Source of the DNA: Eledone cirrhosa
Lineage: Eukaryota
NCBI GenBank assembly: GCA_964016885.1
Contig: OZ024746.1
Span: 41,044,001 to 41,108,000 of the forward strand
DNA length: 64,000 nt
Direction: 5' to 3'
Under the pieces are notes generated by a model. It was not told where the DNA came from and made no database searches. It saw only the letters and a program-made list of their open reading frames with translations. A program made the position numbers and the translations under genes. The stretch's first letter is position 1; each line of letters begins with the position of its first letter. Shown here piece after piece: positions 43,801 through 52,800 of the stretch.

Positions 43801-46800
43801 ATATATATACATATATACATATATATACATATATATATATATATATACATATATACATATATATACATATATATATATATATACATATATATACATATAT
43901 ACATATATATACATATATATACATATATATACATACATATACATATATATACATATACATATATATACATATATATACATATATACATATATACATATAT
44001 ATACATATACATATATATATACATATATATATATATATGTATATATACATATATATATATGTATATATATGTATATATATATATATATATATGTATATAT
44101 ATGTATATATACATATATATATATATGTATATATATGTATATATACATATATATATATATGTATATACATATATATATACATATATATATATATGTATAT
44201 ATACATATATATATACATGTATATATATGTATATATACATATATATATACATGTATATATATGTATATATACATATATATATACATGTATATATATGTAT
44301 ATATACATATATATATACATGTATATATATGTATATATACATATATATATACATGTATATATATGTATATATACATATATATATACATGTATATATATGT
44401 ATATATACATATATATATACATGTATATATATGTATATATACATATATATATACATGTATATATACATATATATATACATGTATATATATGTATATATAC
44501 ATATATATATACATGTATATATATGTATATATACATATATATATATACATATATATATGTATATATACATATATATATATACATATATATATGTATATAT
44601 ACATATATATATATACATATATATATACATGTATATATATGTATATATACATATATATATACATGTATATATATGTATATATACATATATATATATGTAT
44701 ATATACATATATATATATGTATATATACATATATATATATATACATATATATATACATGTATATATATGTATATATACATATATATATATACATATATAT
44801 ATACATGTATATATATGTATATATACATATATATATATGTATATATATGTATATATACATATATATATATGTATATATATATACATATATATATATATAT
44901 ATATATATGTATATATATGTATATATACATATATATATATATGTATATATATGTATATATACATATATATATATATGTATATATATATACATATATATAT
45001 ATATGTATATATACATATATATATATATATGTATATATATGTATATATACATATATATATATATATGTATATATATGTATATATACATATATATATATAT
45101 GTATATATATGTATATATACATATATATATATATGTATATATATGTATATATACATATATATATATATGTATATACATGTATATATACATATATATATAT
45201 ATATGTATATACAGTATATATACATATATATATATATGTATATATATGTATATATACATATATATATGTATATATATGTATATATACATATATATATGTA
45301 TATATATGTATATATACATATATATATATGTATATATATGTATATATACATATATATATGTATGTATATATACATATATATATATATATGTATGTATATA
45401 TACATATATATATATATGTATATATACATATATATATATATGTATATATACATATATATATATATGTATATATACATATATATATATATATATGTATATA
45501 TACATATATATATATATATGTATATATACATATATATATATATATGTATATATACATATATATATATGTATATATACATATATATATATATATGTATATA
45601 TACATATATATATATGTATATATACATATATATATATATATGTATATATACATATATATATATGTATATATACATATATATATATATATATGTATATATA
45701 CATATATATACACATATATATACATATACATATATATACATATATACACATATATATATACATATACACATATATATATACATATACACATATATATACA
45801 TATACATACATATACATATATATACATATACATATATATACATATATATATACACATACATATATATATACACATACATATATATATACACATATATATA
45901 TATATATATATATACACATATATGTATATATACATATACATACATATATATATATATACATACACATATATACATACATATATGTATACATACATATATA
46001 TATATATACATACATATATATATATATATACATACATATATATATATATATACATACATATATATATATATATACATACATACATATATATATATATATA
46101 CATACATACATATACATATATATAACGAAGGAAATGTGGTAAGGAACCAGGTGGACCATAACGCACCAAAGTACTCAATACTTGAGGTAGTAGAGTGGGT
46201 AATAGGAACCAGTAAGACCCCGACAGCTGAGCTCAAGCCGTTTCGACGGCTAATTCTGGACTAACTCTTTAGTCCAGAATTAGCCGTCGAAACGGCTTGA
46301 GCTCAGCTGTCGGGGTCTTACTGGTTCCTATATATATATATATATATATATGTATATATATATATATATATATATATATATATATGTATACATATATATA
46401 TATATATATATACATATATATATATATATATACATATATATATATGTATATATATATATATATACATATATATATATGTATATATATATATATATGTATG
46501 TATATGTATGTATGTATGTATGTATGTATATGTATGTATGTATGTATGTATGTATGTATGTATATATATATATATATATATATATATATATGTATATATA
46601 TATGTATATATATATATATATATATATACATATGTATGTATGTACGTACGTACGTACGTATGTATATACGTATGTATGTATATACGTATGTATGTATATA
46701 CGTATGTATGTATATACGTATGTATATACGTATGTACGTACGTATGTACGTACGTATGTACGTACGTATATATGTATATATATATATATATATAAGAGGG

Positions 46801-49800: not shown

Positions 49801-52800
49801 TAGAATTTATGCCAGTTCCTTTTCTGCATATCGAACATGGCCATTTCCCTGACGGAATCAGAGTTTTGTCCTCTTTTCTACTCATCAACACTTTGTCTTA
49901 GCTAGGTTCACTCAGTCCTCTTGATTCCAACTGCTGTTTTCATAGCCAGAATTTATTCTCTAGCTCCTCTACTGATTTTGCTATAAGAACCAGATTGTCA
50001 GCATAGAGATGTTTCCATGGACAGTCAGTCTTAAACTCCTGTTATGGCTTGGAGGACTATAATGAACAAGAGCGGGCTGAGGACCCAACCCTGATGTACT
50101 CCTACTTGTATCTGGAATTCCTACCCTCATTTTACTGACAGCACCTCTGTACAAAGGTTGCACTGTCCTCACAAGCCATTCCTCAACAGCTAGTTTCCTT
50201 AGGGACCACCAGATGACAGATCGGGGTACCCTATCAAAGGCCTCAAGTTCAACAAAAGCTAAGTATAGTGGCTTATTCTTCTCTAAGAACCTCCCTTGTA
50301 GTTGTCTCATTAAGAAGAGGGCATCTGTTATACTTTTCCCAGACACAAAACCAAACTGCATCACATCTAGTTTGACCCTTTCTCTAATTAGTTGCGCTAA
50401 TATCCTTCCTGCCACTTTCATAACCTGATCTATCAGTTTTATGCCCTATAATTGCTCCTCTCCAGATCATCCCCTTTACCTTTGTAGCAATTTATGAGAA
50501 TATTGCTGCACCAGTCTTTGGGTATGACACCGCCATATATAGCCTGATTGATGATGCGTGCAACCAATTTAGTGCCTACGTCCCCCGATTCCTTCAGCAA
50601 CTATCCCCGACGGTCCAGCAGCCTTACCATTTTTCATTTCCTTAATCGCCTCTTTGACCCTATATTCGTCAATCTCAATAGCTGGTTCCTCTGTCGGATC
50701 TACTGGGGATAATTTCTCTCTCTCCCATTTGTTCTCCACATTCATCAGTCTCTTATAATGACATTTCCAGGCCTCCTTTTTCTCATCATTTGTGTACACC
50801 GGCATCATTCCGGACACACTTATCTCCAACAACATCCTCATTTGCACTGACACACTGCCTCTGATCTTCCCACCGCAGAACATTGACAAACCTCCTACTC
50901 TCAGCCTCTCTGTGTGTTAAGTACACCTGACGTCTAGCTTCTCATATATATATATATATATATAACGAAGGAAATGTGGTAAGGAACCAGGTGGACCATA
51001 ACGCACCAAAGTACTCAATACTTGAGGTAGTAGAGTGGGTAATAGGAACCAGTAAGACCCCGACAGCTGAGCTCAAGCCGTTTCGACGGCTAATTCTGGA
51101 CAGAATGAGTCCAGAATTAGCCGTCGAAACGGCTTGAGCTCAGCTGTCGGGGTCTTACTGGTTTCTATATATATATATATATATATATATATAATTTATA
51201 TAGATATATTTTTTGTGAAAATAGAATTTTCACCGTATATTGACTACAGAAAAAAAGTTTAATATTACGGCATGAATTACCTTAGTGGAAAAAATGGGCA
51301 TTAGCATGCCTGGGAATTGAACCCATACCTCATATTTTCGTGGTAGCACACTTATCGTGAAAATAAAAGTTATGGGTTTAATTTCTACACATACTAATGT
51401 CCATTTTTTCTGTTATGGGGGTCATATGCTCTAATATTAGACTATTTTCTGTAGTTAATATATGGTGAAATCTAATTCTATTTTTTTAATTTTCAATCTC
51501 AAAATTGAAAATAGTTATGGAAAACTAGATGATTGAGGAATGGGGTGAATCAACAACAGAATTATATTTGAAGGGGCAGAGAAGGAAGAAAGAATACTCA
51601 CCACTTGTCTATAGACACCAATAATCTGCTTTTTAGAAAATATATCAAGGGCATTGCTGGAGAACCCAATCTGTCTTGCTAACTCACATAAACATCTATT
51701 AAAAGAAGAAATATTTAAACTATCACTGCATATGTAAACAAATATATTATATAAAGAAATTAGTAAACGTTAAGCCTCCATTGCCTGTGTGGTTAAAAAA
51801 TTTGCATAGACACCACATGGTTTAGAGTTTTATTCCACTGCACGACAAACAAGTTTCTTCTACCATAACTTTAAATAAAGGAACACACTGACCTACTGTG
51901 ACAAGGTGCAGTGATGCATGCAGAACAAATAATTTGTGAGTGGATAGTTCATAGAGAAAACCTTCACAAAAATTGAATATTAACTTTGTTAGTATGCGGA
52001 ATGACTGAGGGTAATAACCCTTCATTAGTTTGAATAACAAAAAGAAAGTCCTCAATTTTAGAACAAAGGACCATGCTTTCTAACCATATTTGAAAACTTG
52101 AATTACTGAGCCTGTGCATTATTTAGAAATATTTTGTTATATGCCACGTAAGCGGAAAAAACATCCCAAAAGCGCAATTTGGGAGACTGCAGCAGTCCGT
52201 CTTGCCAGAAAAGAACGGCGCAATGCTGAACGTGAGTACAAACTTCACAAATCAGACATTAATAGGAAGAGGCGAAATAGATCGTCCAACCACCTCAAAC
52301 AGGTGACAAAAAAGGCAGTGCTTCAATTTGAGCAGCGCATAGCAACCAGCCCTGACAGTAAGGTGTTCTGGAAGTATGTTCACTCAAAGCAGAGGCCTCA
52401 CTCTCCAGTTGGTCCTCTTCGCAATCCCCACACAAGCCAGGTTACTGACGACCCCAAGGAATGCGCAGAGCTCATTGCTGAATGCTATGCAGGCATTTTC
52501 ACCATTGAAGACCAGAGTGTACCATCTCCACCACCTATGACACCGGACTCTATTACAACTATGGAATTTACACCTGCAATGCTGCGACGTCACCTAAAAA
52601 ATAAACGCAACCATGCCTCTCTTGGTCTTGATGGTGTTACGTACCTGCTTCTTAAACGTGGGGAGTACTTCCTTCTGCACCAGTTATCACGCTTCTTCCA
52701 ATTCTGTCTGAACAACAGTGCTACTCCAGAACAGTGGAAAACTGCCAGTGTCATTCCTCTGTTCAAAAAGGGTGACCGCACATCACCTGTGAACTATCGT

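Follow-up and report, generated by a model that had tools for sequence, protein, structure and literature searches.

Inverted ends of which one carries a tail belong to the published anatomy of Penelope-like elements (PLEs; PMC8557442; PMC3846280), and these ends, the formation of pseudo long terminal repeats (pLTRs) and the role of the hammerhead ribozyme are all posed as open questions (PMC8557442; PMC11167929; PMC2377424). Two described systems are among the closest to the sequences treated here. Members of the Hydra clade (PMC8557442) are characterized by the motifs RWK and DKT, a CxCx5C linker, the lack of CCHH, and CxxC and CxH around a conserved E and N, and they target (TA)n. The protein of Poseidon PAc from Anolis carolinensis (Frangieh et al. 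2024, PMC11167929) cuts and extends both DNA strands in vitro and starts at two internal sites that bound the tail. The present analysis concerns two hairpins in a stretch of 64,000 nucleotides of the Eledone cirrhosa genome (assembly GCA_964016885.1, contig OZ024746.1, positions 41,044,001 to 41,108,000 of the forward strand), hereafter the window. These hairpins belong to the shortest insertions produced by an intact Hydra-type PLE, and the place at which their arms end probably marks the run-off of reverse transcriptase (RT) at a capped RNA start, element position 137, a reading to which a probability of about 0.7 is given.

Copy 1 (46125-46331) has a perfect 63-bp stem (46202-46264 paired with 46269-46331) closed by a CTCT loop, and copy 2 (50965-51168) a 60-bp stem (51042-51101 paired with 51109-51168) with 1 mismatch and an AGAATGA loop. 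The copies share a prefix of 137 bases, are spaced by 4840 bp and are both flanked by (TA)n; each arm holds a small internal hairpin and a GAGCTC palindrome. All of this had been described by a first-pass annotation made from the letters alone, and all of it was verified on the window sequence. The fold of copy 1 reaches z = -21.6, and none of 200 shuffles was as good. The parts of the two insertions, numbered along the parent element, are as follows.

41968-46125, no strand: (TA)n-rich tract, left target flank of copy 1.
46126-46201, minus strand (the sense strand is minus): tail of copy 1, element positions 1-76, 100% identical to the parent.
46202-46264, minus strand: tailed arm of copy 1, element positions 77-139, the 3' half of the predicted hammerhead fold, with the 3' strand of stem II, GAAA, stem III with its palindromic loop, the GUC site (between 46222 and 46221) and the 3' strand of stem I.
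46265-46267, no strand: junction insert of copy 1, 3 bases assignable to neither arm.
46268-46331, plus strand: inverted arm of copy 1 without tail, element positions 140 to 77, continuing into (TA)n.
50966-51041, minus strand: tail of copy 2, element positions 1-76.
51042-51101, minus strand: tailed arm of copy 2, element positions 77-136.
51102-51107, no strand: junction insert of copy 2, 5 bases that repeat arm sequence and are likely templated, plus a G at 51107, a putative copy of the RNA cap.
51108-51168, plus strand: inverted arm of copy 2 without tail, element positions 137 to 77, mismatch at 51164.

The tailless arm of copy 2 would thus start at the presumed transcription start, with the G at 51107 just before it. 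In the parent, the tail is the interval between the pLTR and the start of the open reading frame (ORF); since the tail of PAc is the interval between two starts of reverse transcription (PMC11167929), the two tail ends may by analogy be read as such start sites. As modelled, the arm is the 3' half of a hammerhead fold of the U3-A8 type. The tailed arm of copy 1 does not include the 5' half, which carries the catalytic core, and because the hairpins hold the 3' half only, their inner hairpin and palindrome would be ribozyme remnants.

In a search of the 3.0-Gb genome (the window lies on its contig C6), a 31-mer of the arm had 30,777 exact matches and the arm-gap-arm pattern was found at no fewer than 15,251 loci, sister subfamilies counted; the reversed controls gave 0 in both cases. 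The first-pass annotation had allowed that only two copies might exist, which these counts contradict, and its proposal of (TA)n targeting was borne out, as all of the best 30 loci begin at the identical base right after (TA)n. Joints of the hairpin type are also present in contigs of the public runs X1 and X2, so that the family is not a long-read artefact; no piece of these contigs runs across either window copy, and the two loci themselves are therefore without spanning confirmation. The window copies are ordinary members of this family and not a special twin pair.

The parent was reached from one locus that ran on past the arm. A search with the resulting junction gave 3,164 candidates, and the 40 that were scored all spanned it; these loci led to the full element and to many open frames of about 784 codons. 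At 20 open-frame loci (784-787 codons) the pLTR plus tail is 99-100% identical to the first 139 bases of the window copies (98.5% in one copy). The element unit measures 3,531 bp and occurs in near-identical tandems of up to 100% identity. Partial tandems forming pLTRs, an adjacent inverted 5'-truncated copy and a tail at one end are all present, as expected of PLEs. Its single ORF encodes, from Met, a protein of 717 amino acids with RT motifs. Of 8,000 candidates that were scored, 2,049 are related to this protein, most of them unnamed and about 40% identical to it. No family was matched in Pfam and nothing in a sequence search of PDB. The predicted structure (pLDDT 93) is matched best in Foldseek by telomerase RTs (E 4e-8), with TM-scores of only 0.34-0.37. 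The C-terminal region reads VIY...YIG with R, H, E and N residues, as judged from the sequence with no direct profile match to this protein; its top homolog, P0002, carries PF01541, which we take to be GIY-YIG. Further motifs are RWR, DKT, CNCPDRSIC (a CxCx5C linker), a single Cys in the core (no CCHH), CNLC-E and N-CKH, and together they fit the Hydra clade. A first reading of the protein as Neptune-like was dropped, as the published motifs indicate Hydra. The Penelope-like origin proposed for the window hairpins was upheld by the search and by extension to an intact RT-coding parent and is virtually certain, and this autonomous parent is a new family of a known kind of element.

With the Hydra clade as described in PMC8557442, which includes Hydra-1_Obim of Octopus bimaculoides, the family shares a single ORF with RT followed by a putative GIY-YIG-type domain, the above motifs (RWR being RWK-like), the (TA)n target, a predicted hammerhead placed within the pLTR, the formation of partial tandems, and truncated inverted copies that carry one tail. 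It differs in the length of the unit (3,531 bp against generally less than 3 kb), in the tail (76 bases against the usual 30-40) and in the predicted hammerhead, where a variant U3-A8 core replaces the canonical one, stem II is long and stem III measures 5 bp. Protein and hammerhead also differ, in a comparison by eye only, from those of Hydra-1_Obim in the supplement of that paper. Moreover, PMC8557442 describes few families, whereas here arms number in the tens of thousands and intact copies are numerous. Head-to-tail arrays of up to 5 near-identical 3.5-kb units, ended by an inverted copy, were seen at G000:C1:91473175-91493800 and at L128-L131 and are compatible with rolling-circle reverse transcription. 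At L026 (from about 1650) and L022, this element directly adjoins, or is joined to, ends of further PLE families whose C-termini are of the GIY-YIG type, which suggests template switching or shared targets.

How the arms were brought together was examined in the first 35 listed hairpins. Exactly one tail is present in 34 of them, in agreement with the inverted arm and one-sided tail described earlier. The tailless arm is the longer in 17, the tailed arm in 13, and the two are equal in 5; the 35 hairpins show 30 distinct junctions. These three features indicate that each hairpin was very probably built anew from two primings and not copied as a unit, and the earlier suggestion of separate young insertions is likewise upheld. 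Genome-wide, the youngest subfamily has 3,965 tailless ends and 3,970 tailed arms, the latter number including internal tandem junctions. Among 42 consecutive paired loci, 6 have a tailed arm that ends at 38-89 and a tailless arm that extends to 130-143; of the 9 long inverted insertions of which both ends were seen, 7 bear the ORF on the tailless arm. Copies form a continuum from 38-base arms to multi-unit tandems, and no diagnostic base distinguishes short from long ones; a supposed separate subfamily of short copies ending at 140 proved to be an artefact of selection by the query. The joints consist of overlaps of 1-4 bases, blunt ends or short inserts that frequently repeat arm sequence, and were presumably made by microhomology-mediated repair of the host. 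At L206, L248, L249 and L230 the junctions hold several tandem re-copies of the last 9-12 bases of the arm, resembling iterative templated synthesis.

The ends themselves are far from random. Among consecutive tailless ends (entries 45-100, n = 56, two of them neighbouring duplicates), 46 fall within 127-143 and the other 10 continue further; this sample supplies the share of read-through, while the at least 1,390 read-through arms counted genome-wide represent a single one of the two loop variants. The 98 ends of 49 young hairpins lie most often at 137 (24), 136 (16), 131 (14) and 133 (11), with none beyond 141, and 6 of 9 arms without a partner end at 136-137. Where an arm ends at 137, the insert opens with C in 10 of 11 cases, against 6 of 27 for other ends (Fisher p = 1.5e-4); the three single-base gaps between two 137 ends, excluded from the test, are all C/G. 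A TATA-like TATTTAAA begins 29 bases upstream of 137, which is the A of TTAGT or TCAGT, the +1 base by the initiator consensus. An untemplated G on the sense strand is an accepted mark of a copied cap in L1 and SVA (PMC4859970), and transcription starts of PLEs fall in the pLTR (PMC2377424; PMC8557442). From the pile-up of ends at 137, the extra C, the TATA- and initiator-like context and the known pLTR starts, we infer that 137 is the start of a capped transcript at which reverse transcription ran off, and that the extra C is a copy of the cap.

The proposed course of events would be as follows. The PLE protein would cut both strands of a (TA)n tract, and each cut end would prime reverse transcription at one of two internal RNA sites 76 bases apart. 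At position 137 the RT would reach the capped 5' end of the RNA and run off, leaving two short complementary DNAs (cDNAs) that would be joined head to head into a hairpin, whereas long copies would arise from templates without the capped 137 end, i.e. circular or read-through RNA. Under this mechanism, the 137-base prefix and the 60-base stem would simply measure how far each priming site lies from the RNA start. The identity of the parent, the single tail, the greater length of either arm, the ends at 136-137, the extra C and the short overlaps or inserts were all observed in this genome; the cutting of both strands and the two internal starts that define the tail are taken from the literature on another PLE. 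The hairpins contain no promoter-like motif, ORF or ribozyme core and are most likely dead-on-arrival by-products.

Several observations weigh against run-off at 137. The ends span 127-143, with side peaks at 131 and 133, and lie within the predicted stem II, where a structural stall would give the same picture; some of the C-starting inserts are perhaps templated, and the sample is small, with 11 inserts after 137 that all come from a single contig and the window; and sister subfamilies with a weaker TATA-like motif have similar ends. In long copies, 17 truncations of the second pass were seen and not one falls at 127-143, so that the capped RNA starting at 137 is not the usual template of full copies, and these would require the extra assumption of a template without that 5' end, either circular or read-through RNA. 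The in vitro PLE data come from a different clade (PMC11167929), and the GIY-YIG call is motif-based for a protein that Pfam assigned to no family. The same element and the same two primings could accordingly be retained with an RT that stalls early in hammerhead stem II, or at a bound protein, 137 then not being an RNA end at all. A stall would explain why the ends coincide with the 3' strand of the predicted stem II and its extension, and it makes a second RNA species unnecessary; RTs may also add untemplated bases where they stall. However, the 17 later passes do not stop in that stem, and of the 13 inverted partners of long arms, 12 run through it and the other ends at 122. Since later passes and partners thus read through, a stall on every pass is disfavoured, and the two arms of an insertion behave alike. 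The enrichment in C is moreover confined to 137, and the modal end is an initiator-like base 29 bases downstream of a TATA-like motif. A stall is thus regarded as unlikely.

The remaining alternatives concern the way in which the palindrome arose, and each is less probable still. In a snap-back or self-priming reaction, a single cDNA would fold back and copy itself, after which an endonuclease would strip the tail from one side. Self-priming of PLE palindromes has been proposed (PMC3846280), as has endonuclease resolution of the tail (PMC8557442); the arms do share each other's subfamily variants, and arm sequence is often repeated in the junction inserts. However, a snap-back copy of the tail-primed cDNA cannot exceed its template, which favours two primings: the tailless arm often has sequence missing from the tailed arm, up to an entire ORF, and this reading, improbable overall, is already strained by these long tailless arms. 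An extra C is also possible on both arms (the L255 insert is CG), and arms without a partner end at the same place. That a non-autonomous hairpin master was transcribed and moved whole by PLE machinery, its loops diverging later, comes close to the separate non-coding family moved as a unit that the first-pass annotation had envisaged. The size is very uniform, non-autonomous PLE derivatives exist in the form of retrozymes (10.64898/2026.07.22.740005), and the apex of copy 2 is identical at two other loci and 98% identical at ten. Those two loci, however, belong to a different subfamily and have the tail on the opposite side, so that the apex recurs by mechanism and not by descent, while the apex of copy 1 was found at 100% only in itself among 40 scored of 235 candidates. 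With the hairpin sequence being the end of an autonomous coding element, 30 junctions distinct among 35, a continuum of sizes and no base diagnostic of short copies, the unit hypothesis was given up and a master is very improbable. Inverted repeats and TA flanks superficially recall a miniature inverted-repeat transposable element (MITE) or fold-back DNA transposon, and a long-read chimera or assembly duplication was likewise considered. The ends are asymmetric, with one tail in place of terminal inverted repeats at both ends, the parent codes for RT and not for a transposase, and a target duplication is unreadable inside (TA)n; flanks and junctions differ between the window copies, and the 15,251 loci and the hairpin joints in contigs of other runs also speak against it. 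At the level of the family this reading is already refuted.

Run-off at a capped 5' end can be set beside several known processes. Retroviral strong-stop cDNA, a short run-off product from a primer near the 5' end, is comparable to the hairpin arms, which differ in having no tRNA primer, integrase or LTR. This comparison and that with L1 twin priming are functional only. In L1, two primings give an inversion, and an untemplated base is found at the RNA 5' end (PMC4859970), but the two arms of an L1 inversion do not hold the same sequence twice as those of the hairpins do. PAc (PMC11167929) shares the tail as the interval between internal RT starts at the pLTR-ORF junction, an AT-rich target, the extension of both strands and the use of uncleaved hammerhead RNA as template, just as the arms here cross the GUC site. 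It belongs to a different clade, and head-to-head joining, a dominant stop at the transcription start and copying of the cap are not described in the accessible part of that paper. The PLE hammerheads of Cercyon in Schistosoma (Cervera and de la Pena 2014, PMC4209133) have the same U3-A8 covariation, palindromic loop 3, pLTR location and opposite-strand pairs; they are minimal motifs without a stable stem III, whereas the hairpins hold the 3' half of the ribozyme only. Retrozymes of the non-LTR type resemble the hairpins in shortness, relation to a PLE pLTR and association with a hammerhead. They form head-to-tail tandems with whole ribozymes, unlike the hairpins, which are head to head, contain half a ribozyme and are not copied as a unit. 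A literature search by title, largely outside which the subscription papers fall, found no prior run-off model, nor did it find in print a fixed stop with a cap-like base and a one-to-one tail rule at this scale.

On the sense strand of the parent (minus in the window), the minimum-energy fold (z = 0.0) is a three-way junction shaped like a type I hammerhead. Its core reads UUGAGAA, stem II is long, the loop of stem III contains the GAGCTC palindrome, and both GAAA and the GUC site are present. Rfam returned nothing on the parent ribozyme and, on the hairpins, only sub-threshold matches of microRNA type. In sister subfamilies (L065, L069, L081, L089 and L092) the core is U3-A8 and also C3-A8 and G3-A8, the latter two predicted to be inactive, and yet these subfamilies are abundant, hinting that cleavage may be dispensable for spread. 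In run X4, which has spliced contigs, the depth summed over 50968-51093 of the window is about 5-fold higher over the tail than over the arm, unlike in X1 and X2. The drop lies near the expected RNA end of the cleaved ribozyme and is a lead only, as contig depth cannot rank the parts.

Both copies lie in the gene TMEM94. In a contig of run X4, six minus-strand exons between 62834 and 51602 are spliced together into a single open frame, and the exons match human TMEM94; the intronic position given by the first-pass annotation is borne out in this way. The surrounding parts of the gene are the following.

51602-51695, minus strand: upstream exon, spliced in the X4 contig, similar to human TMEM94 649-676 (E 0.17).
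29929-51601, minus strand: intron of 21,673 bp with both copies, its upstream side spliced, its downstream side deduced and not from an observed splice.
About 29820-29928, minus strand: probable downstream exon, placed by acceptor, phase and length.
28439-28561, minus strand: next exon, matching human TMEM94 717-749 (E 2e-6).

A PDB search did not recognise the exon at 29.9 kb. It is because the next exon is placed at 29928 that both copies fall inside one 21.7-kb intron, and on this gene model both would form stems in TMEM94 pre-mRNA, which the first-pass annotation proposed as potential ADAR or Dicer substrates. Nothing singles out TMEM94, since the genome has more than 15,000 such hairpins, and A>G differences in contigs were equally frequent in unspliced, DNA-like runs. 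The same intron contains two degenerate (TA)n/(TACA) arrays of 4-5 kb (30477-35179 and 41968-46124) and a broken RTE-like long interspersed nuclear element (LINE) at 49040-50943, with RT fragments on the minus strand, which ends at the left flank of copy 2. Other LINE ORFs inside TMEM94 introns lie at 35424-38090 (888 amino acids, open), 38526-41657 and 52102-54074. Several families gather in the (TA)n tracts of the window. Between the copies, a TA-flanked fragment at 47885-48068 whose minus strand shows the canonical hammerhead core CUGAUGA...GAAA is likely the end of another PLE family, the same that flanks L009, L018 and L268. A TA-flanked fragment of about 870 bp at 46796-47664, in which the minus strand has a motif resembling a hammerhead near 46995-47020, is probably another PLE end.

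The family is unusually tractable: its young insertions number in the thousands and are near-identical, its parents are intact, the end position is sharp and a cap-like base is present. It yields a precise prediction, an RNA start at 137. Run-off with head-to-head joining would account for the long-unexplained shape of PLEs. It is conceivable, at well under even odds, that the insertions record two pools of RNA: capped linear RNA starting at 137, giving strong-stop-like cDNAs and hairpins (about 4/5 of insertions), and ribozyme-processed circles, which rolling-circle reverse transcription would turn into full and multi-unit copies, both ends of the target being primed on a single ribonucleoprotein. 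If this were true, the PLE hammerhead would have the task of turning mRNA into a productive template, and one model would cover inverted pLTRs and tails. Failed transposition would then have seeded more than 15,000 near-perfect stems of 55-65 bp of double-stranded RNA, many of them intronic, and such by-product hairpins are predicted to be an abundant source of long perfect RNA stems in the host.

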